From Eledone cirrhosa (taxonomy: Eukaryota), in assembly GCA_964016885.1 (NCBI GenBank), contig OZ024746.1:56296001-56360000 (forward strand): DNA of 64,000 nucleotides, read 5' to 3'. The notes beneath the pieces are model-generated. The model was not told where the DNA came from, did not search any database, and worked only from the letters and a program-made list of their open reading frames with translations. Position numbers and translations under genes: made by a program. Of this stretch, positions 12,839-58,658 are shown piece by piece. Each line of letters begins with the position of its first letter. Position 1 is the stretch's first letter.

Positions 12839-13437
<599 letters not shown>

Positions 13438-16400
13438 AAATTGAAACAAAATGAAAACGAAATTTCATTTCTCACTCTTAGTATGGCACTTACTTAAATG
13501 TAAGTATGCATGTATACGTACATACATATATGTATACAGACGTACAGTAGCATGCACATATATATACATATATACATACATATGCATACAGGTACACATA
13601 CATATATGCACGTATCAGTTTAGCGGCGCTTATTATAACGTTCCTGTGTCAGTGTTGAACAAAAAGGTGACGTGGTTGCCTTAACACCGTATGGCATAAA
13701 TTCAGGCTGTTCAGTTTGTTTACAAACGAACAAAGCGACGTTATAATAAGCGCCGCTAAACTGATACGTGCATATATGTATGTGTACCTGTATGCATATG
13801 TATGTATATATGTATATATATGTGCATGCTACTGTACGTCTGTATACATATATGTATGTACGTATACATGCATACTTACATTTAAGTAAGTGCCATACTA
13901 AGAGTGAGAAATGAAATTTCGTTTTCATTTTGTTTCAATTTATCGTTTTCGGTATGCCTGACCGATTTAACTCACTCAATATGCAAATTAGGCTGCTCAG
14001 CCTTAATTTTCATAAGGGAAGTATATACTTTCGAACGTTCAACTATCTGGCAGATGGGTAAACGGTGCTGATGATAGCTAACAAGCTTGAAACTAGTACA
14101 TCGTTCCTGTGTCAGTGTTGAACAAAAAGGTGACGTGGTTGCCTTAACACCGTATGGCATAAATTCAGGCTGTTCAGTTTGTTTACAAACGAACAAAGCG
14201 ACGTTATAATAAGCGCCGCTAAACTGATACGTGCATATATGTATGTGTACCTGTATGCATATGTATGTATATATGTATATATATGTGCATGCTACTGTAC
14301 GTCTGTATACATATATGTATGTACGTATACATGCATACTTACATTTAAGTAAGTGCCATACTAAGAGTGAGAAATGAAATTTCGTTTTCATTTTGTTTCA
14401 ATTTATCGTTTTCGGTATGCCTGACCGATTTAACTCACTCAATATGCAAATTAGGCTGCTCAGCCTTAATTTTCATAAGGGAAGTATATACTTTCGAACG
14501 TTCAACTATCTGGCAGATGGGTAAACGGTGCTGATGATAGCTAACAAGCTTGAAACTAGTACATCGTTCCTGTGTCAGTGTTGAACAAAAAGGTGACGTG
14601 GTTGCCTTAACACCGTATGGCATAAATTCAGGCTGTTCAGTTTGTTTACAAACGAACAAAGCGACGTTATAATAAGCGCCGCTAAACTGATACGTGCATA
14701 TATGTATGTGTACCTGTATGCATATGTATGTATATATGTATATATATGTGCATGCTACTGTACGTCTGTATACATATATGTATGTACGTATACATGCATA
14801 CTTACATTTAAGTAAGTGCCATACTAAGAGTGAGAAATGAAATTTCGTTTTCATTTTGTTTCAATTTATCGTTTTCGGTATGCCTGACCGATTTAACTCA
14901 CTCAATATGCAAATTAGGCTGCTCAGCCTTAATTTTCATAAGGGAAGTATATACTTTCGAACGTTCAACTATCTGGCAGATGGGTAAACGGTGCTGATGA
15001 TAGCTAACAAGCTTGAAACTAGTACATCGTTCCTGTGTCAGTGTTGAACAAAAAGGTGACGTGGTTGCCTTAACACCGTATGGCATAAATTCAGGCTGTT
15101 CAGTTTGTTTACAAACGAACAAAGCGACGTTATAATAAGCGCCGCTAAACTGATACGTGCATATATGTATGTGTACCTGTATGCATATGTATGTATATAT
15201 GTATATATATGTGCATGCTACTGTACGTCTGTATACATATATGTATGTACGTATACATGCATACTTACATTTAAGTAAGTGCCATACTAAGAGTGAGAAA
15301 TGAAATTTCGTTTTCATTTTGTTTCAATTTATCGTTTTCGGTATGCCTGACCGATTTAACTCACTCAATATGCAAATTAGGCTGCTCAGCCTTAATTTTC
15401 ATAAGGGAAGTATATACTTTCGAACGTTCAACTATCTGGCAGATGGGTAAACGGTGCTGATGATAGCTAACAAGCTTGAAACTAGTACATCGTTCCTGTG
15501 TCAGTGTTGAACAAAAAGGTGACGTGGTTGCCTTAACACCGTATGGCATAAATTCAGGCTGTTCAGTTTGTTTACAAACGAACAAAGCGACGTTATAATA
15601 AGCGCCGCTAAACTGATACGTGCATATATGTATGTGTACCTGTATGCATATGTATGTATATATGTATATATATGTGCATGCTACTGTACGTCTGTATACA
15701 TATATGTATGTACGTATACATGCATACTTACATTTAAGTAAGTGCCATACTAAGAGTGAGAAATGAAATTTCGTTTTCATTTTGTTTCAATTTATCGTTT
15801 TCGGTATGCCTGACCGATTTAACTCACTCAATATGCAAATTAGGCTGCTCAGCCTTAATTTTCATAAGGGAAGTATATACTTTCGAACGTTCAACTATCT
15901 GGCAGATGGGTAAACGGTGCTGATGATAGCTAACAAGCTTGAAACTAGTACATCGTTCCTGTGTCAGTGTTGAACAAAAAGGTGACGTGGTTGCCTTAAC
16001 ACCGTATGGCATAAATTCAGGCTGTTCAGTTTGTTTACAAACGAACAAAGCGACGTTATAATAAGCGCCGCTAAACTGATACGTGCATATATGTATGTGT
16101 ACCTGTATGCATATGTATGTATATATGTATATATATGTGCATGCTACTGTACGTCTGTATACATATATGTATGTACGTATACATGCATACTTACATTTAA
16201 GTAAGTGCCATACTAAGAGTGAGAAATGAAATTTCGTTTTCATTTTGTTTCAATTTATCGTTTTCGGTATGCCTGACCGATTTAACTCACTCAATATGCA
16301 AATTAGGCTGCTCAGCCTTAATTTTCATAAGGGAAGTATATACTTTCGAACGTTCAACTATCTGGCAGATGGGTAAACGGTGCTGATGATAGCTAACAAG

Positions 16401-16657
16401 CTTGAAACTAGTACATCGTTCCTGTGTCAGTGTTGAACAAAAAGGTGACGTGGTTGCCTTAACACCGTATGGCATAAATTCAGGCTGTTCAGTTTGTTTA
16501 CAAACGAACAAAGCGACGTTATAATAAGCGCCGCTAAACTGATACGTGCATATATGTATGTGTACCTGTATGCATATGTATGTATATATGTATATATATG
16601 TGCATGCTACTGTACGTCTGTATACATATATGTATGTACGTATACATGCATACTTAC

Positions 16658-16660
<3 letters not shown>
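13438..16660 (+). repeat. 463-bp tandem array (about 6.5 units) with a 5' inverted arm; retrozyme-like family A1
   Basis: Exact 463 spacing of repeated ORFs (13972, 14435, ... 16287). 13438-13640 is an inverted partial unit. (TA)n on both sides; one HHR per unit. Confidence 0.95.
14061..14105 (+). ncRNA. Minimal type I hammerhead (copies also start at 14524, 14987, 15450, 15913, 16376)
   Basis: aacggtg CTGATGA t agct aaca agct t GAAA cta GTA catcgtt. 7-bp stem I, 4-bp stem II, palindromic stem III ACTAGT; predicted cleavage after 14098. Confidence 0.92.
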
Positions 16661-16715
<55 letters not shown>

Positions 16716-18129: not shown

Positions 18130-18362
18130 TGTCTTAAACGTATATACATATGTGTGCGTGTGTGTGCGTGTGTGTGTGTGAGTATGTATAGGAATGTATG
18201 TATATGTGTGTTTGTGTGTGTATATATATAGTTATGTTTATATATATTTGTATATATGCGTCTACATACAGAGACATACATATACATGAAGTAGTAACAA
18301 AGTCAAAAACATATATATTTGTATATATTTGTATATATTTGTATATATTTGTAAATATTTAA

Positions 18363-18397
<35 letters not shown>

Positions 18398-18665
18398 AAC
18401 GGAAAAAATGAAACGATATTTCATTTCCCACTCTTAGTACGGCTGTTACTTAAATATAAGTATGTACACGTACATACATATATGTATACCGACGTACAGT
18501 AGTATGTATATATATATATATACATACATGCACACATATATATATGCACGTATGGATTCACCGAACATTTATTATAATGCTCGGTGTGTTTGTAAACAAA
18601 CATCCCGTATTAAGCCGTAGTGTCTAGCAACCACCGTTGCTCGTTTGTTCAACACTGACAAAGGA

Positions 18666-18708
18666 ACGCTGTACTAGTTTCAAGCTTGTTAGCTATCGTC
18701 AGCAACGT
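18666..18708 (-). ncRNA. Minimal type I hammerhead (10 minus-strand copies, every 424 bp up to 22482-22524)
   Basis: acgttg CTGACGA t agct aaca agct t GAAA cta GTA cagcgt. Confidence 0.92.
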
Positions 18709-21700
18709 ATACCTTCCTGCCAGATTGTTGAACGTATATACTTACCTTATGCATATTAACGGCTGAGTAGCCCAATATGCATATCGAGTGGGTTAATCGG
18801 CCGGGTGCACCGAAAACGATAAACGGAAAAAATGAAACGATATTTCATTTCCCACTCTTAGTACGGCTGTTACTTAAATATAAGTATGTACACGTACATA
18901 CATATATGTATACCGACGTACAGTAGTATGTATATATATATATATACATACATGCACACATATATATATGCACGTATGGATTCACCGAACATTTATTATA
19001 ATGCTCGGTGTGTTTGTAAACAAACATCCCGTATTAAGCCGTAGTGTCTAGCAACCACCGTTGCTCGTTTGTTCAACACTGACAAAGGAACGCTGTACTA
19101 GTTTCAAGCTTGTTAGCTATCGTCAGCAACGTATACCTTCCTGCCAGATTGTTGAACGTATATACTTACCTTATGCATATTAACGGCTGAGTAGCCCAAT
19201 ATGCATATCGAGTGGGTTAATCGGCCGGGTGCACCGAAAACGATAAACGGAAAAAATGAAACGATATTTCATTTCCCACTCTTAGTACGGCTGTTACTTA
19301 AATATAAGTATGTACACGTACATACATATATGTATACCGACGTACAGTAGTATGTATATATATATATATACATACATGCACACATATATATATGCACGTA
19401 TGGATTCACCGAACATTTATTATAATGCTCGGTGTGTTTGTAAACAAACATCCCGTATTAAGCCGTAGTGTCTAGCAACCACCGTTGCTCGTTTGTTCAA
19501 CACTGACAAAGGAACGCTGTACTAGTTTCAAGCTTGTTAGCTATCGTCAGCAACGTATACCTTCCTGCCAGATTGTTGAACGTATATACTTACCTTATGC
19601 ATATTAACGGCTGAGTAGCCCAATATGCATATCGAGTGGGTTAATCGGCCGGGTGCACCGAAAACGATAAACGGAAAAAATGAAACGATATTTCATTTCC
19701 CACTCTTAGTACGGCTGTTACTTAAATATAAGTATGTACACGTACATACATATATGTATACCGACGTACAGTAGTATGTATATATATATATATACATACA
19801 TGCACACATATATATATGCACGTATGGATTCACCGAACATTTATTATAATGCTCGGTGTGTTTGTAAACAAACATCCCGTATTAAGCCGTAGTGTCTAGC
19901 AACCACCGTTGCTCGTTTGTTCAACACTGACAAAGGAACGCTGTACTAGTTTCAAGCTTGTTAGCTATCGTCAGCAACGTATACCTTCCTGCCAGATTGT
20001 TGAACGTATATACTTACCTTATGCATATTAACGGCTGAGTAGCCCAATATGCATATCGAGTGGGTTAATCGGCCGGGTGCACCGAAAACGATAAACGGAA
20101 AAAATGAAACGATATTTCATTTCCCACTCTTAGTACGGCTGTTACTTAAATATAAGTATGTACACGTACATACATATATGTATACCGACGTACAGTAGTA
20201 TGTATATATATATATATACATACATGCACACATATATATATGCACGTATGGATTCACCGAACATTTATTATAATGCTCGGTGTGTTTGTAAACAAACATC
20301 CCGTATTAAGCCGTAGTGTCTAGCAACCACCGTTGCTCGTTTGTTCAACACTGACAAAGGAACGCTGTACTAGTTTCAAGCTTGTTAGCTATCGTCAGCA
20401 ACGTATACCTTCCTGCCAGATTGTTGAACGTATATACTTACCTTATGCATATTAACGGCTGAGTAGCCCAATATGCATATCGAGTGGGTTAATCGGCCGG
20501 GTGCACCGAAAACGATAAACGGAAAAAATGAAACGATATTTCATTTCCCACTCTTAGTACGGCTGTTACTTAAATATAAGTATGTACACGTACATACATA
20601 TATGTATACCGACGTACAGTAGTATGTATATATATATATATACATACATGCACACATATATATATGCACGTATGGATTCACCGAACATTTATTATAATGC
20701 TCGGTGTGTTTGTAAACAAACATCCCGTATTAAGCCGTAGTGTCTAGCAACCACCGTTGCTCGTTTGTTCAACACTGACAAAGGAACGCTGTACTAGTTT
20801 CAAGCTTGTTAGCTATCGTCAGCAACGTATACCTTCCTGCCAGATTGTTGAACGTATATACTTACCTTATGCATATTAACGGCTGAGTAGCCCAATATGC
20901 ATATCGAGTGGGTTAATCGGCCGGGTGCACCGAAAACGATAAACGGAAAAAATGAAACGATATTTCATTTCCCACTCTTAGTACGGCTGTTACTTAAATA
21001 TAAGTATGTACACGTACATACATATATGTATACCGACGTACAGTAGTATGTATATATATATATATACATACATGCACACATATATATATGCACGTATGGA
21101 TTCACCGAACATTTATTATAATGCTCGGTGTGTTTGTAAACAAACATCCCGTATTAAGCCGTAGTGTCTAGCAACCACCGTTGCTCGTTTGTTCAACACT
21201 GACAAAGGAACGCTGTACTAGTTTCAAGCTTGTTAGCTATCGTCAGCAACGTATACCTTCCTGCCAGATTGTTGAACGTATATACTTACCTTATGCATAT
21301 TAACGGCTGAGTAGCCCAATATGCATATCGAGTGGGTTAATCGGCCGGGTGCACCGAAAACGATAAACGGAAAAAATGAAACGATATTTCATTTCCCACT
21401 CTTAGTACGGCTGTTACTTAAATATAAGTATGTACACGTACATACATATATGTATACCGACGTACAGTAGTATGTATATATATATATATACATACATGCA
21501 CACATATATATATGCACGTATGGATTCACCGAACATTTATTATAATGCTCGGTGTGTTTGTAAACAAACATCCCGTATTAAGCCGTAGTGTCTAGCAACC
21601 ACCGTTGCTCGTTTGTTCAACACTGACAAAGGAACGCTGTACTAGTTTCAAGCTTGTTAGCTATCGTCAGCAACGTATACCTTCCTGCCAGATTGTTGAA

Positions 21701-22961
21701 CGTATATACTTACCTTATGCATATTAACGGCTGAGTAGCCCAATATGCATATCGAGTGGGTTAATCGGCCGGGTGCACCGAAAACGATAAACGGAAAAAA
21801 TGAAACGATATTTCATTTCCCACTCTTAGTACGGCTGTTACTTAAATATAAGTATGTACACGTACATACATATATGTATACCGACGTACAGTAGTATGTA
21901 TATATATATATATACATACATGCACACATATATATATGCACGTATGGATTCACCGAACATTTATTATAATGCTCGGTGTGTTTGTAAACAAACATCCCGT
22001 ATTAAGCCGTAGTGTCTAGCAACCACCGTTGCTCGTTTGTTCAACACTGACAAAGGAACGCTGTACTAGTTTCAAGCTTGTTAGCTATCGTCAGCAACGT
22101 ATACCTTCCTGCCAGATTGTTGAACGTATATACTTACCTTATGCATATTAACGGCTGAGTAGCCCAATATGCATATCGAGTGGGTTAATCGGCCGGGTGC
22201 ACCGAAAACGATAAACGGAAAAAATGAAACGATATTTCATTTCCCACTCTTAGTACGGCTGTTACTTAAATATAAGTATGTACACGTACATACATATATG
22301 TATACCGACGTACAGTAGTATGTATATATATATATATACATACATGCACACATATATATATGCACGTATGGATTCACCGAACATTTATTATAATGCTCGG
22401 TGTGTTTGTAAACAAACATCCCGTATTAAGCCGTAGTGTCTAGCAACCACCGTTGCTCGTTTGTTCAACACTGACAAAGGAACGCTGTACTAGTTTCAAG
22501 CTTGTTAGCTATCGTCAGCAACGTATACCTTCCTGCCAGATTGTTGAACGTATATACTTACCTTATGCATATTAACGGCTGAGTAGCCCAATATGCATAT
22601 CGAGTGGGTTAATCGGCCGGGTGCACCGAAAACGATAAACGGAAAAAATGAAACGATATTTCATTTCCCACTCTTAGTACGGCTGTTACTTAAATATAAG
22701 TATGTACACGTACATACATATATGTATACCGACGTACAGTAGTATGTATATATATATATATACATACATGCACACATATATATATGCACGTATGGATTCA
22801 CCGAACATTTATTATAATGCTCGGTGTGTTTGTAAACAAACATCCCGTATTAAGCCGTAGTGTCTAGCAACCACCGTTGCTCGTTTGTTCAACACTGGGC
22901 TACTCAGCCGTTAATATGCATAAGGTAAGTATATACGTTCAACAATCTGGCAGGAAGGTAT

Positions 22962-23004
22962 ACGTTGCTGACGATAGCTAACAAGCTTGAAACTAGTACA
23001 GCGT
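22962..23004 (+). ncRNA. Minimal type I hammerhead (copies also start at 23386, 23810, 24234)
   Basis: Same motif as 18666-18708, on the plus strand. Confidence 0.92.
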
Positions 23005-24481
23005 TCCTTTGTCAGTGTTGAACAAACGAGCAACGGTGGTTGCTAGACACTACGGCTTAATACGGGATGTTTGTTTACAAACACACCGAGCATTATAATA
23101 AATGTTCGGTGAATCCATACGTGCATATATATATGTGTGCATGTATGTATATATATATATATACATACTACTGTACGTCGGTATACATATATGTATGTAC
23201 GTGTACATACTTATATTTAAGTAACAGCCGTACTAAGAGTGGGAAATGAAATATCGTTTCATTTTTTCCGTTTATCGTTTTCGGTGCACCCGGCCGATTA
23301 ACCCACTCGATATGCATATTGGGCTACTCAGCCGTTAATATGCATAAGGTAAGTATATACGTTCAACAATCTGGCAGGAAGGTATACGTTGCTGACGATA
23401 GCTAACAAGCTTGAAACTAGTACAGCGTTCCTTTGTCAGTGTTGAACAAACGAGCAACGGTGGTTGCTAGACACTACGGCTTAATACGGGATGTTTGTTT
23501 ACAAACACACCGAGCATTATAATAAATGTTCGGTGAATCCATACGTGCATATATATATGTGTGCATGTATGTATATATATATATATACATACTACTGTAC
23601 GTCGGTATACATATATGTATGTACGTGTACATACTTATATTTAAGTAACAGCCGTACTAAGAGTGGGAAATGAAATATCGTTTCATTTTTTCCGTTTATC
23701 GTTTTCGGTGCACCCGGCCGATTAACCCACTCGATATGCATATTGGGCTACTCAGCCGTTAATATGCATAAGGTAAGTATATACGTTCAACAATCTGGCA
23801 GGAAGGTATACGTTGCTGACGATAGCTAACAAGCTTGAAACTAGTACAGCGTTCCTTTGTCAGTGTTGAACAAACGAGCAACGGTGGTTGCTAGACACTA
23901 CGGCTTAATACGGGATGTTTGTTTACAAACACACCGAGCATTATAATAAATGTTCGGTGAATCCATACGTGCATATATATATGTGTGCATGTATGTATAT
24001 ATATATATATACATACTACTGTACGTCGGTATACATATATGTATGTACGTGTACATACTTATATTTAAGTAACAGCCGTACTAAGAGTGGGAAATGAAAT
24101 ATCGTTTCATTTTTTCCGTTTATCGTTTTCGGTGCACCCGGCCGATTAACCCACTCGATATGCATATTGGGCTACTCAGCCGTTAATATGCATAAGGTAA
24201 GTATATACGTTCAACAATCTGGCAGGAAGGTATACGTTGCTGACGATAGCTAACAAGCTTGAAACTAGTACAGCGTTCCTTTGTCAGTGTTGAACAAACG
24301 AGCAACGGTGGTTGCTAGACACTACGGCTTAATACGGGATGTTTGTTTACAAACACACCGAGCATTATAATAAATGTTCGGTGAATCCATACGTGCATAT
24401 ATATATGTGTGCATGTATGTATATATATATATATACATACTACTGTACGTCGGTATACATATATGTATGTACGTGTACATA

Positions 24482-24518
<37 letters not shown>

Positions 24519-25244
24519 TTCTTCACCTACTTACACCTGAGATGGGGGCATACATTACGATATTGGTAAATGGTCAGATATACCCAGCGTCTACATTGAT
24601 ATAATTCCCTGCAGCATTTACACAACACGACAATAATTCTTCGTGAGCAGTGTTGAGCATTGCACGACAAAGCGAATATAGCAGTCAAATGCTCCAATTA
24701 AAGCTAATTGAAATGAAACAAAATATGATGTTTATGGTGTGTATCTAGCCCCAAGTACTAATATATTTCCCACGTAAAACGTACAATTACAGAAACGTTA
24801 ATTCCCGCATCCCAATACAAAAATAGAGCGTATTTATTATAAATCGAACGCAAAACGTTTTCCGCTGATTTGTCAAACACCATATCGCATGTTCTACAAC
24901 TTTGGAGACGATTCCATTTGTTATATGGTGTTCACATATAGACATTCTTAGGAGAATAATTCATAATGTTAATAAGCCCCAAAACGTAGGATATTTATAC
25001 ATAAACAATAGAAACAACAGCATTCAGAGGAATGAGCAATAGAACTTTAACCATTATCAACTCAAAGGGTAGAACCGCCTATATCATAGCAGATATTATT
25101 GAGGTAATTTCGCACATTTTTCCTGCCACGCCATTCGTTGATGCGATCCTGAATTACAAGATAACTGCTTAATGTGTTCCAACAAGAAACAACGTGAATC
25201 AAGGCGGAATTATCATATATATATGTGTGTGTGATCTCTCTCTC

Positions 25245-28149: not shown

Positions 28150-28221
<72 letters not shown>

Positions 28222-28224
<3 letters not shown>

Positions 28225-28968
28225 CGTTCAACAATCTGGCAGGAAGGTATACGTTGCTGACGATAGCTAATACGCTTGAAACTAGTACAGCGTTCCTTTG
28301 TCGGTGTTGAACAAACGAGCAACGATGGTTGCTAGACACTACGGCTTAATACGGGATGTTTGTTTATAAACACACCGAGCATTATAATAACTGTTCGGTG
28401 AATCCATACGTACATATATATATGTGTGCATGTATGTATATATATATATACATACTACTGTACGTCTGTATACATATATGTATGTACGGGTACATAATTA
28501 TATTTAAGTAACAGCCGTAATAAGAGTGGGAAATGAAATTTGGTTTAATTGTTTCCGTTTATCGTTTTCGGTGCACCCGATAGGCAAATTGGGCTACTCA
28601 GCCGTTAATATGCATAAGGTAAGTATATACTGTCAACAATCTGGCAGGAATGTATACGTTGCTGACGATAGATGGCTAATAAGCTTGAAACTAGTACAGC
28701 GTTCCTTTATCAGTGTTGAACAAACGAGCAACCTTGGTTGCTAGACACTACGGCTTAATACGGGATGTTTGCTTACAGACACACCGAGCATTATAATAAA
28801 TGTTCGGTGAATCCATACGTACATATATATATATGTGTGCATGTATGTATATATACATACTACTGTACGTCTGTATACATATATGTATGTACGGGTACAT
28901 ACTTATATTTAAGTAACTGCCGTACTAAGAGTGGGAAATGAAATTTCGTTTCATTTTTTTCCGTTTAT
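28222..28968 (+). repeat. Family A2 dimer, slightly diverged, with HHRs at 28251-28293 and 28656-28702
   Basis: Homologous to the 424-bp unit; TA-flanked. Confidence 0.9.
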
Positions 28969-42500: not shown

Positions 42501-42774
42501 ACATACCCGGAAAAAAGACAACCTCAACGGTTGAAATTCGCTGGATAGTGGAGATAATTGAGGGTGATATATATGTAATATATTTTATATTTACTCCACT
42601 AACTAGTTGGGTGCTTTATATCAGTTATAACATGTTTAAGCTTGTGGAATCCCAACAAATTAAATATAACCTCTGCATATATATATATATATATACATAT
42701 ACTCACATTCTCACTCAAACAGGCGCACTGTCACACAAACACGTCTATCTATTTACCTATCTATCTATCTATCT

Positions 42775-44060
42775 CCACGGGCGGAGGTGGCGAACATTTA
42801 CATAACGTCCGTCACTTACTACTGCCTGACTGTCGTGCCTTGCCCTAAGGAAACACTCACCACCATGGAACGCATGCCCTTCCAATTTCTTTGGAAGAAG
42901 CGTCCTCCTATGGTGAGAAGATCCATCTGCTGCCAACAACCTTCGAAAGGAGGGCTGGGGATGCCGTGGTTGATGATGCGTAGGCACGCATTAAGGCTAC
43001 GGCACCTACAGGTATTCCTCACTGGTCAACCGGTGTGGGTTCCGTTCGTGAAACGAGCCTTTCCGAGACTCGTCTCACTCACCGAGCTACAATCCTGGGT
43101 CAAGCAAAGATCCGGAAAACTGGGAGACTGGCACACTGAGTGTGCTCAGGCGCTCAGGGCTCTCTGGCAAGCGGGCCAGGCCATCGGTGGAGAATCCACC
43201 TCATCATTCTATAGAGGGCTGGTGGCTAGCAGGGGCGATGACACCCTTGGAGAGTCGCTGGACATGGAAGAAGACGAACTGGCCAGCCTGTTCGGTAGGA
43301 CTTTCGGCCCAGGACCAATGGACAACTTCCAGAAGTCACTGGCCTGGCAGTGCTACCGAGGGGCTCTACCCGTTCGAGAGAGGCTCTACAGACACGGGCG
43401 CCCGGGCAGGGATCCCTAAAAAAAGATTTGCCCTAGATGCGTGCGTCACGAAGAAACCGTAGCGCACGCATTGGTGCAATGTCCGGGCGTGGCTGATCTG
43501 TGGGGCTACGCCGAACAACTGCTGTCGCGGGTGGCGCCGATTAAATTGACCGCCGAGTCCGTGATGACAATCAAACCGCCTCCCCTCTTCACAAAGGAAG
43601 CAAAGGCGGTTTTTCTGTGCGTAATAGCCATGTTGAAAGAGGTTGTTTGGTGGACACGATTGAAAGGTCTGAGGTCAGGCAACTTCCTCTCTGGCCATAG
43701 TCTGGTCTACTTCTTCCGATATCACTTCGGAAGAAGGATAAGAATGGAGAGAGAGGTGCTTGGCCACAGGCAGTTTTATGAAAGGTGGGTGATAGTGGCG
43801 AGAATGGCTCGTGTAAATGGGCCTTCTCTGTATACCATCCTGTAGGTAAAGAAGTAAAGGAGAGGGGAGCACCTTCTCCATGTGCTCCCCGGGCAAAGGA
43901 TTGCACACTTTTTCGGGGGTGTGTGCAACCCCCATCACGTCCCCTCCCTTTTGAGGTTAGTTTCGATTATTTTCATGTTACACCCTTTTTACTCGATTAT
44001 ATGTAAACTCCCCCTTTGTATTTGTCCCTTCTTTTTATGCCTTTATGGTAAATAAAGAAA
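42775..44060 (+). mobile_element. 5'-truncated L1/Tx1 LINE (ORF2 C-terminus and 3' UTR) inserted in (TCTA)n
   Basis: KGGLGMP, LAWQCYRGALPV and C..C..EETVAHALVQCP motifs; homologous to 48436-49712; ctat repeats on both sides. Confidence 0.92.
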
Positions 44061-44399
44061 TCTATCTATCTATCTCCGGATAGTATAGATGTGATTCACA
44101 TCGGCTCCTCGATTATTTGGATATATTACATGTTAACAGTAAGTGTTTGTGTGTATTCTTACGTTATTGTGTTAATTAACCCTCTTGCTTGGGTCTTCGG
44201 AGATTAGGGTTAATTTATTTCACCCCTTTTGGGGTGAACCTTTTTATCCTAAAAATCTTGTTGTTATCTCTACGCTAGTAGTAATGGAAGCCATTACCAC
44301 AGGTAACGATGACACGCCTACTAAACAAACTTAAAGTGAGCTGGTAGCGGAGGCAACAATCCTCCCTACTGAAAGAATAATGATTATTAGAAACATTGA

Positions 44400-52870
<8,471 letters not shown>

Positions 52871-53043
52871 GGTAGAATATTTGGGACGCAGCAAAGGATG
52901 TTCAGAATTAAAATATAAATATAAGATTTAGGCGTAATATTTTTGAAAATAATATAGTCAAATAATCAAATAATGAGGTATATAAACCAAATGAACGTAA
53001 ACAATTTGGTATCCATGTGTGTTGATATTGTTGCTTTCCGTTC

Positions 53044-55951: not shown

Positions 55952-57435
55952 GAATAGAATTAAACGAAATTTCATTTCTCACTCTTAGTACGGCAGTTAC
56001 TTATATGTAAGTATGTATGTATGTATACGTACATACATATATGTATACATATGTACAGTAGTATGTATATATACACATACATGCACACATATATATATAT
56101 ATATATATGCATGTATCGGTTTACCGAACATTTATTATAATGCTCAGTTTGTTTGCAAACAAACAAACAGCCCGAATTACGCCGTACAGTGTTTAGGCAA
56201 CCACGTCACCTTTTTGTTCAACACTGACACAGGAACGATGTACTAGTTTCAACCTTATTAGATAACGTCAGCATCGTACACCTTCCTGCCAGATGGTTGA
56301 ACGTCTGGAAGTATATATTTTCCTTATGCATATTAACGGCTGAGCAGCCTAATTTGCATATCAAGTGAGTTTAGTCGGCCGGGCGCACTGAAAACGAAAA
56401 ATTGAATAGAATGAAACGAAATTTCATTTCTCACTCTTAGTACGGCAGTTACTTAAATGTGAGTATGTATGTATGTATGTATACGTACATACATATATGT
56501 ATACAGATGTACAGTAGTATGTATATATACACATACATGCACATATATATACATGCACGTATCGGTTTACCGAACATTTATTATAATACTCGGTTTGTTT
56601 GTAAACAAACAAACAGACCGAATTACGCCGTACAGTGTTTAGGCAACCGCGTCACCTTTTTGTCCAACACTGACAGAGGAACGATGTACTAGTTTCCAGC
56701 TTATTAGCTATCGTCAGCATCGTACACCTTCCTGCCAGATGGTTGAACGTCTGAAAGTATATACTTTCATTATGCATATTAACGGCTGAGAAGCCTAATT
56801 TGCATATCGAGTGAGTTTAGTCGGCCGGGCGCACCGAAAACGATAAATGGAATAGAATGAAACGAAATTTCATTTCTCACTCTTAGTACGGCACTTACTT
56901 AAATGTAAGTATGTATGTATACGTACTTACATATATGTATACAAACGTACAGTAGCATGTCTATATATACATAAATGCACACATATATATATGCACGTAT
57001 CGGTTTACCGAACATTTATTATAATGCTCGGATTATTTGTAAACAAACAAACAGCCCGAATTACGGCGTACACTATTTAGGCAAACACGTCACCTTTTTG
57101 TTCAACACACCATTTTTCGTTTTCGGTACGCCTAGCCAACTAAACTCACTCGATATGCAAATTAGGCTGCCTAGACGTTAATATGCATAGGGAAAGTATA
57201 TACTTTCAGGCGTTCAAACATCTGGCAGGAAAGTATACGATGCTGAGGATAGCTAATAAGCTTGAAACTAATACATCGTTCCTGTGTCAGTGTTGAACAA
57301 AAAGGTGACGTGATTGCCTAAACACTGTACGGCTTAATTCGGGGTGTTTGTTTGTTTACAAACAAACCGAGCATTATAATAAATGTTCGGTAAACCGATA
57401 CGGGCATATATATATATATGTGTGCATGTATGTAT
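55952..57435. repeat. Older family A array: about 2.6 units on minus, then a partial unit on plus
   Basis: HHRs at 56235-56277 (-, decayed), 56681-56723 (-) and 57237-57279 (+, CTGAGGA); inversion at about 57108-57115. Confidence 0.9.
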
Positions 57436-57825
57436 TTATTAAAATAACAGATTAAAGTTTAAGCAAAGAATCGCTGCTTTCACCCTTAACGGGATCTTCT
57501 GAAACTAACAAAGTCAATCTGTAAACGCAGAACTGGATATTTCAAAAAACGTTGCAACCGGAGGAAGACAGGAAGACGATACTCTGGTTCGTGGAAACGT
57601 TCGCTGGCAAAGAACGGGAAAAAAACTAATATAATACGTCATTAATAGGAGCTGTGAAAAGCAATTACGCGCAAAGACAGAACCACGTTTATGGTATAAA
57701 AAAGGTCGTAGACTAATGTTCCTTAGGTGGTGCATAGAGACGTTCTCTGGCAATGAACGAAAAAACGAAGATAATACGTCATATGTGGAGCGTGGAGAAC
57801 AATAGCACGCAAAGACACAACCACA
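57436..57825 (-). mobile_element. Solo family D terminal repeat
   Basis: Homologous to 51070-51485; HHR-like motif at 57456-57506. Confidence 0.82.
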
Positions 57826-57852
57826 TATAAATATATATATATATATATATAT

Positions 57853-57967
57853 AAGTTGAAATAAAATGAAAACGAAATTTCATTTCTCACTCCTAGTACG
57901 GCACTTACTTAAATGTAAGTATGTGTGTATACGTACATACATATATGTATACAGACGCACAGTAGCA

Positions 57968-58017
<50 letters not shown>

Positions 58018-58556
58018 CAGGTACACATACATATATGCACGTATCAGTCTAGCGGACGCTTACTATAACGCCGCTTTGTTCGTTTGTAAACAAACTGAAC
58101 AGCCTGAATTTTTATGCCGTACGGTGTTAAGGCAACCACGTCACCCTTTTGTCCAACACTGACACAGGAACGATGTACTAGTTTCAAGCTTGTTAGCTAT
58201 CATCAGCACCGTATACCCATCTGTCAGATAGTTGAACGTTTTCGGTATGCCTGCCCGACTTAGCTCACTCGATATGCAAATTAGGCTGCTCTGCCGTTAA
58301 TTTTCATAAGGAAAGTATATACTTTCGAACGTTCAACTAACTGGCAGATGGATATACGGTGCTGATGATAGCTAACAAGCTTGAAACTAGTACATCGTTC
58401 CTGTGTCAGTGTTAAACAAAAGGGTGACGTGGTTGCCTTAACACCTTACGGCATAAAAATTCAGGCTGTTCAGTTTGTTTACAAACGAACAAAGCGGCGT
58501 TATAGTAAGCGTCCGCTAGACTGATACGTGCATATATGTATGTGTACCTGTATGTA

Positions 58557-58604
<48 letters not shown>

Positions 58605-58654
58605 TGCTACTGTGCGTCTGTATACATATATGTATGTACGTATACACACATACT

Positions 58655-58658
<4 letters not shown>
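57853..58658. repeat. Family A1 head-to-head pair
   Basis: HHRs at 58170-58212 (-) and 58356-58398 (+); inversion at about 58237; TA-flanked. Confidence 0.9.

Follow-up and report, generated by a model that had tools for sequence, protein, structure and literature searches.

Fixed, paired ends of head-to-head retrozyme arrays in Eledone cirrhosa point to Penelope-type priming on both target strands

Sequence analysis of a 64,000-nucleotide stretch of the Eledone cirrhosa genome (GenBank assembly GCA_964016885.1, contig OZ024746.1, positions 56,296,001 to 56,360,000 of the forward strand; hereafter the window, which lies on our contig C6 of the 3.0-Gb assembly) demonstrated a long head-to-head array of a 424-bp repeat inserted into (TA)n. 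Judged by its sequence features, the repeat is a non-coding, non-LTR (LTR, long terminal repeat) retrozyme of a new family, with predicted hammerhead self-cleavage. We consider it probable that an enzyme of the Penelope-like element (PLE) type, with reverse transcriptase (RT) and GIY-YIG functions, primed both (TA)n strands on the same, probably circular, RNA and thereby produced a two-arm insertion. The unit, the hammerhead motif, the TA targets, the two arm ends called S and T, the scattered 5′ ends and the frequent microhomology at junctions are the parts of this course of events that were directly observed.

Positions within the unit are given as phases in ribozyme sense, phase 1 being the base directly 3′ of the hammerhead cut. 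The 424-bp periodicity was exact, with 0 mismatches, over both the minus-strand block of 10.62 units and the plus-strand block of 3.76 units (Table 1), and Tandem Repeats Finder (TRF) gave concordant results. The plus block is an exact reverse complement of the minus-block unit (0 mismatches over 1591 nt). These values confirm an earlier note on this DNA, which had counted about 10.6 and 3.75 units without differences. The same note had described a giant palindrome; its fold-back arms of about 1.6 kb were recovered, but the palindrome is off-centre, since position 22588 pairs with 22898 and leaves a loop of 309 nt. In ribozyme sense both arms face outward, so that the junction is 5′-to-5′. Both outer ends merge into (TA)n, one reading ttccgtttat and the other catacttata before the first TA, and because both flanks are (TA)n, a target-site duplication longer than 4 bp is unreadable at this array.

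The hammerhead motif in the unit has the core CUGANGA and GAAA, with a predicted cut after 22998 (+). Stem II consists of 4 bp above a U-U pair at its base, stem III consists of 2 bp within a palindromic hexamer, and stem I spans the cut. An Rfam scan of the window returned 0 matches at the gathering score, and the hammerhead call therefore rests on the motif and on covariation. In 10 hand-picked sequences of four families, taken from fetched loci, 93.8% of the cells were paired and two-sided changes occurred in 8 of 13 pairs, compared with 25–44% pairing in slid controls. The unit has a GC content of 0.37–0.39, and its monomer RNA is predicted to fold with a minimum free energy of −151.8 kcal/mol (z −9.5), a stability reached by 0 of 100 shuffled sequences. 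An exact 34-nt core pattern had 23,085 matches in the genome (reversed control, 0), and a 48-nt pattern of the focal subfamily had 599. No stop-free frame of at least 170 aa was listed in the array, low-complexity frames being filtered, and no open reading frame (ORF) for RT plus GIY-YIG was found within the element, indicating that it is non-autonomous. The insertion ends in TA tracts, not in LTRs; no search was aimed at a primer-binding site or polypurine tract. In the portions consulted, the published non-LTR retrozymes (Cervera and de la Pena 2020, PMC7229834; Li et al., bioRxiv 10.64898/2026.07.22.740005) are alike in having a tandem non-coding unit of 150–450 bp with one type I hammerhead, GC below 50%, a highly self-paired predicted RNA, thousands of copies and co-occurrence with PLEs. 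At least 10 distinct hammerhead types were present among the fetched loci.

The outer ends of the arms were located at two fixed sites of the unit, S at phase 221 and T at phase 277, which are 56 nt apart. The first 12 loci, chosen by internal sequence, all ended at S or T, with one of each per insertion. The ends were then counted in 129 regions, 69 of them selected by internal sequence, the window being among these, 40 by a T end and 20 by an S end; arms with less than 86% identity to the focal unit or shorter than 28 nt were skipped, and nearly all sampled retrozyme loci come from contig C1. The chosen arm was not recovered by this filter in 6 of the 40 T-selected regions. Sixty head-to-head pairs were obtained, and all 42 classifiable pairs were S+T (23, 12 and 7 in the three selection groups, respectively), with 0 S/S and 0 T/T. 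For the 23 pairs from internally selected regions, the chance of this outcome is 2^-23 if ends are independent and equally likely. Among the 84 long arms (at least 150 nt) of the internally selected set, all 64 TA-flanked ends were at S or T. Of the 74 long-arm ends at S or T, 64 had a TA flank, a preference for (TA)n as in Hydra and Naiad PLEs. Priming at the longest internal TA runs was considered and rejected, with 0 of these 64 ends located there. Genome-wide, the S-end pattern had 1,171 matches and the T-end pattern 428, two counts that are not comparable because the patterns span different subfamilies.

The same design was seen in a 463-bp subfamily, where all 12 two-arm loci among 14 regions were S+T (the other two being one cut by a gap and one single arm), and in an unrelated 310-bp hammerhead family, where 3 of 3 pairs had one tail and used two sites of their own. 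The 310-bp copies (L037:5504-8052, L055:6134-8502 and L099:491-2940) have a different palindromic stem III hexamer, and the laps at each locus are fixed for a loop variant specific to it. The earlier note had placed the block ends at variable, internal, T/A-rich points off the hammerhead site. The end letters and the position away from the cut were as stated, but the points are the two fixed sites S and T; its expectation that arrays lack a fixed end phase is thus contradicted for the 3′ ends. It had also attributed the non-integer array length to arbitrary priming points, whereas the 3′ ends are fixed and the non-integer length results from scattered 5′ truncation.

Several observations weigh against a strict rule of one S and one T end. 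Eighteen of the 60 pairs were unclassifiable, with one or both ends elsewhere; these mostly lack a TA flank and were probably interrupted after insertion. Three of them (L059, L099 and L188), with short or compound arms, are TA-flanked on both sides. In L202, phase 228 is combined with S and both ends are TA-flanked, and this locus may be a true S/S-like exception. Many insertions have a single arm, often with TA on the 5′ side. The second arm is only about 10 nt long at L145 and L156, which suggests that some of the single arms may stem from twin events whose second arm is vanishingly short.

The inverted arm could alternatively arise after single priming, if the cDNA or an antisense RNA primed itself or folded back, and the head-to-head repeats of PLEs have been explained by self-priming on an antisense template in the consulted part of Arkhipova et al. 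(2013, PMC3846280). Any copy made by fold-back has to be contained in the first arm. The arm lengths of 40 pairs were compared on this basis, the nested pair L032 and the segmental duplicate L096 being dropped, and in 16 of the 40 they were unobtainable as a fold-back copy of either arm. At L179, for example, the T arm covers phases 213–277 only and the S arm phases 409–221. Separate priming of both target strands is therefore likely, and we regard priming of each strand at its own fixed site as very probable. Why the second arm should end at the other fixed site is also left unexplained by fold-back. It could account for the focal array, where the S arm lies fully inside the T arm, and for the minority of junctions that are near-perfect palindromes at unit hairpins (L036, L042, L054, L204 and the 310-bp family at L037), which are compatible with two primings as well. 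As a general route, fold-back is largely refuted and appears very improbable, while it may apply to single loci.

Junctions and haplotypes of the same 40 pairs were also analyzed. The arms overlapped by at least 2 nt at the junction in 17 pairs (18% in simulation) and by at least 4 nt in 10 pairs (3% in simulation), the overlaps being taken from local alignments and possibly somewhat inflated; 12 pairs had extra bases. The two arms of a locus disagreed at 23 of 333 diagnostic sites, compared with 4025 of 12323 between loci, and sample-private variants were common to both arms in 10 of 40 pairs. This shared haplotype fits one RNA or one source locus, with a contribution from subfamily bursts. 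Arm lengths were correlated within loci (rho 0.55, n = 40), a value confounded by subfamily and selection.

An assembly or read artefact, such as a collapsed consensus or fold-back chimeric reads, was weighed with the contigs of four public runs (three of one sample and one study, possibly the sample of the assembly) aligned to 22500–24900. Fifty-four joints connected minus-arm with plus-arm positions (15 of them listed), and several of these recurred in each of the three runs from one sample; the head-to-head design is therefore present in the read data. The TA loose ends of run contigs were at 22635 (T) and 22694 (S). Dozens of loci each have their own junction, non-palindromic loops and fixed outer ends, and old diverged copies share the design. 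The suspicion is fed by the 14 units without differences, by the large locus J253 with its gap and indel-rich laps, and by the focal junction, for which no bridging contig piece was seen in the alignment over 22500–24900. Head-to-head arrays are thus not an assembly artefact as a class, and an artefactual origin is hardly credible; the caveat raised in the earlier note persists for the focal junction, and the focal unit number could be off.

Passage of the arms through the cut site indicates the state of the template. The cut site was crossed by 64 of 80 arms, with a stop there in 3 of 127 passages, and in 51 young arms none of the 130 crossings had an indel within 5 nt of it. The template was therefore continuous, and cleaved linear monomers are unlikely; template jumps between such monomers were rejected, as there were no scars and no pile-up of 5′ ends near the cut (2 of 80 arms, 2.1 expected). 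This result bears out the proposal of internal priming followed by several laps on a continuous template in the earlier note. At L085, one variant is present in 8 of 8 covering laps of both arms and has 5 genomic matches elsewhere, all of which are single units on other backgrounds. At L217, one unit length and one sample-private variant are present in 6 of 6 full laps of both arms. Both loci speak for a monomer-length template and hence for a circle. The homogeneity of the focal array, previously taken as evidence of a rolling circle, has little weight: the unit identity is uninformative on this point because the 424-nt unit of this young subfamily recurs, unchanged or with few substitutions, in three other arrays. 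A search of sequencing runs listed no RNA run containing the repeat, a result that is neutral as to the circle. Among cases with two-strand priming at fixed sites, a circle is rather likely to have been the usual template.

Two other explanations accept much of the above and dispense with the circle. In one, a PLE enzyme primes both strands at the fixed sites on a long, linear, uncut array transcript. The ribozyme is weak-looking, with its 2-bp stem III and the U-U pair in stem II, and is comparable to the axolotl motifs, which cleave poorly as monomers according to the consulted part of PMC7229834; uncleaved RNA was the main PLE substrate in vitro (Frangieh et al. 2024, PMC11167929). A longer array of the focal 424-nt unit, which could serve as a linear template, also weighs against the circle: the largest locus (G000:C1:253171796-253187487, covered by L031, L083 and L084) has a 20.6-unit T arm and a 7.4-unit inverted arm, followed after an assembly gap by 8.5 more units with many indels, and is possibly a source array or a misassembly. 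Heterogeneous arrays point the same way, namely the mosaic J69 (a variant shared by 3 scattered laps out of 17, and mixed unit lengths), the mosaic 14-unit L212, the AABB-like L209 and the arm of L158, which mixes two subfamilies. However, the L085 variant occurs in all of its laps without another multi-unit carrier in the assembly, L217 is similar within the sample, and linear copying alone would only shorten arrays; the parent array may be missing from the assembly. A linear template is accordingly unlikely, if worth retaining.

In the other explanation, insertions start short, with about one unit per arm, and grow later at the DNA level by unequal exchange or slippage together with gene conversion between inverted arms. 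L209 and L212 would suit this, as would the period-2 arrays L205+L193 (G000:C1:49584014-49588765) and L093:2837-4773, in which 420- and 422-bp units alternate, each array with its own A and B units; neighbours differ by 10–16 changes and next-neighbours by 0–6, and the end laps are divergent. In the ABAB array L193 the end laps are 5–6 changes from the identical inner laps, a pattern that suggests stepwise expansion and counts against rolling copying. The use of L093 and L193 as proof of a dimer circle was downgraded, as their end laps are unlike the inner laps. By contrast, the youngest subfamily, 99–100% identical between loci, is already multi-lap on both arms at most loci, and arm lengths are correlated within loci, with the confounding given above. 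Growth at the DNA level is thus improbable as the general origin of the arms, and rolling copying and DNA-level expansion probably both operate.

A two-armed insertion with one tail is also known from PLEs. In the consulted portions of Craig et al. (2021, PMC8557442), PLEs are described with an adjacent inverted 5′-truncated copy and a 30–40-bp tail, often at one end only, and Hydra and Naiad PLEs have (TA)n targets. On AT-rich DNA, purified PLE protein nicks both strands and extends both. It begins reverse transcription at two fixed RNA sites, both internal, between which the tail lies, and a dimer is predicted (PMC11167929). The inversion, left unexplained in the earlier note, is thus a Penelope-type signature. 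A PLE family was found in the E. cirrhosa genome, with 11,922 first-look candidates, of which 150 were scored. A 713-aa frame is intact in 12 copies selected for it, and one such protein was scanned and contains RWR, DKT, YRDD, CxCX5C and VY..YIG. By motif match to the published description (RWK-like, DKT, CxCX5C linker, GIY-YIG-like, TA targets), this PLE would be Hydra-like. Atlas neighbours of the ORF were HTH_animal (24–38%), GIY-YIG and RVT_1, with nothing significant in Pfam and no PDB match; 2 of 9 neighbouring ORF fragments had Pfam RVT_1 and/or GIY-YIG, and BLASTP of the 713-aa ORF to a Pfam-positive ORF was weak (E 0.001). An inverted left arm was present in 9 of the 12 intact copies and was S+T in 8 of these 9.

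The 713-aa PLE is a candidate source of the enzyme for the retrozyme, in a putative helper role. Against this role, the PLE 3′ region, in the one family compared, matched the retrozyme unit over only 22 nt (E 0.014), a match that may be due to chance, plus low-complexity similarity. Two other points weigh against priming with one S and one T start: one PLE copy is S+S (L137), a possible exception to the pairing, and the use of start sites in vitro showed no strand difference (PMC11167929). The 22-nt stretch, at window 22917-22938 (+) and in the L138 3′ region, contains a splice-donor-like AG/GTAAGT. The 3′ region of the Hydra-like PLE also contains 139-bp repeats and a hammerhead-like core in which A replaces the conserved U.

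We propose the following course of insertion. The transcripts would be cut by the ribozyme and ligated into a 424-nt circle, by analogy with other animal retrozymes, for which this is reported in the consulted part of PMC7229834. The PLE protein, probably as a dimer, would bind the hairpin region around phases 221–277, and the borrowed enzyme would nick both (TA)n strands, one subunit beginning cDNA at T and the other at S on opposite strands. Each RT would then run backwards along the template, completing a number of laps that varies, and would displace the cDNA of the other. Finally, end joining of the two cDNA 3′ ends and fill-in would produce the giant inverted repeat. A broader version, which we offer tentatively as a possibility, is that PLE integration in general is an obligatory asymmetric twin priming by a dimer, S plus T on one RNA, and that on a ribozyme-made circle each of the two RTs pursues the other for as many as 20 laps, producing multi-kilobase palindromic satellites in one step. 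LINE-1 (long interspersed nuclear element 1) twin priming, attributed to Ostertag and Kazazian in 2001, reportedly joins two target-primed cDNAs head-to-head with microhomology; it is said to use the poly(A) end and a variable internal site, to give non-overlapping arms and to occur in a minority of insertions. Unlike that process, the focal repeat has no poly(A), uses fixed internal sites, has arms that overlap by many laps, and represents a common form.

The insertions described here share with Hydra-clade PLEs an inverted 5′-truncated neighbour copy, a tail at one end, partial tandems, (TA)n targets and a hammerhead in the repeat (PMC8557442; PMC3846280, portions consulted). They differ from those PLEs in that the retrozyme has no ORF and both arms are multi-lap arrays. 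Its tail measures 56 nt, compared with 30–40 for PLEs, and the one-tail rule is near-strict, compared with 'often' or 'optional' there; the unit has no clear homology to the pseudo-LTR (pLTR) of the one PLE family compared. PAc (Poseidon of Anolis; PMC11167929) is similar in its two fixed internal RT starts bounding the tail, its use of both strands and its AT-rich targets. That study found no strand difference and did not link the start sites to inverted arms, whereas the genomic pairs imply that each event uses both kinds of start once. For retrozymes, the consulted parts of PMC7229834 and bioRxiv 10.64898/2026.07.22.740005 both propose PLE mobilisation and copying of circles; the link published there is co-occurrence and pLTR phylogeny, compared with a PLE-type insertion footprint here. 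Word counts of the main texts of these two papers ('tail' counted in one), supplements lying outside, found no head-to-head arms, tails or fixed priming sites.

Additional insertions were identified in the window (Table 1). The 463-bp motif of the sister insertion was considered as locus-private, which was ruled out by its 5,549 matches. A 460-bp distant relative of the focal unit (L031:1-1190) shares the hairpin layout, has compensatory hammerhead changes, and is head-to-head with ends in TA. Further hammerhead families were seen in head-to-head pairs at window 27423 (-)/28046 (+), L095:703/1298, L079:4788/4812, L054:723/1073 and L048:484/516. A second small insertion is nested in the internal TA run of an arm at L032:5827-5976. 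Window 42670-49307 is a GC-richer stretch with broken LINE-type ORFs, endonuclease-like and RT-like by eye.

Table 1. Features of the focal array and of related insertions in the window (window positions)
Feature	Position	Strand	Details
(TA)n-rich target tract, left	18311..18396		TRF row 18311-18397 and sequence
T (tailed) arm, 10.62 identical 424-bp units	18395..22897	-	3′ end (RNA sense) at phase 277 (18395); truncated 5′ at phase 15
56-nt tail between the fixed end sites, phases 222-277	18395..18450	-	At the end of the T arm only; short hairpin in predicted fold
Head-to-head (5′-5′) junction, 2-nt microhomology TG	22896..22897		Overlap of the two blocks
S (tail-less) arm, 3.76 identical units	22896..24488	+	5′ end at phase 322; 3′ end near phase 221, where it runs into TA
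Type I hammerhead motif, one copy	22960..23006	+	Core 22968-22974 and 22989-22992; one per unit in both arms
(TA)n target tract, right	24489..24516		Sequence and TRF
Sister insertion, 463-bp subfamily	13436..16662	- / +	T arm 13436-13640 (-); 6.5-unit S arm 13639-16662 (+); arms identical in overlap
Older single T arm, 1.8 units	28219..28968	+	TA on both sides
Older diverged head-to-head insertion	55952..57439	- / +	2.6 units minus, 0.7 plus; right end adjoins another repeat
Older head-to-head insertion	57853..58657		T-type end left, S-type end right
Hydra-like PLE fragments	52062-52901, 51221-51476, 57437-57830	- (52062-52901)	713-aa ORF when intact

The kind of element, a retrozyme with PLE architecture, is already known; the multi-lap arms on both sides, the near-strict one-tail rule and the pairs that exclude fold-back appear to be new. 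No account of such a footprint was found in the literature searched; subscription papers and supplements lay outside it, and the supplements of PMC7229834 (model figure), PMC11167929 and PMC8557442 (family lists) may bear on novelty. The origin of the tandem and inverted structures of PLEs is a named open task in the consulted part of PMC8557442, and PLE mobilisation of animal retrozymes has so far been a hypothesis from co-occurrence and phylogeny in the consulted parts of PMC7229834 and bioRxiv 2026.07.22.740005. This young, high-copy, non-coding family provides thousands of readable insertion events, and its S+T rule, together with the pairs that are not fold-back copies, connects the inverted arms with the pair of start sites observed in vitro in PMC11167929. 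A one-step origin is thereby offered for tandem satellites and large palindromes. If the broader version is true, the arrays would provide the first footprint, in a genome, of retrozyme circles copied by rolling-circle reverse transcription, and asymmetric twin priming would explain the inverted-repeat-plus-tail structure of PLEs.

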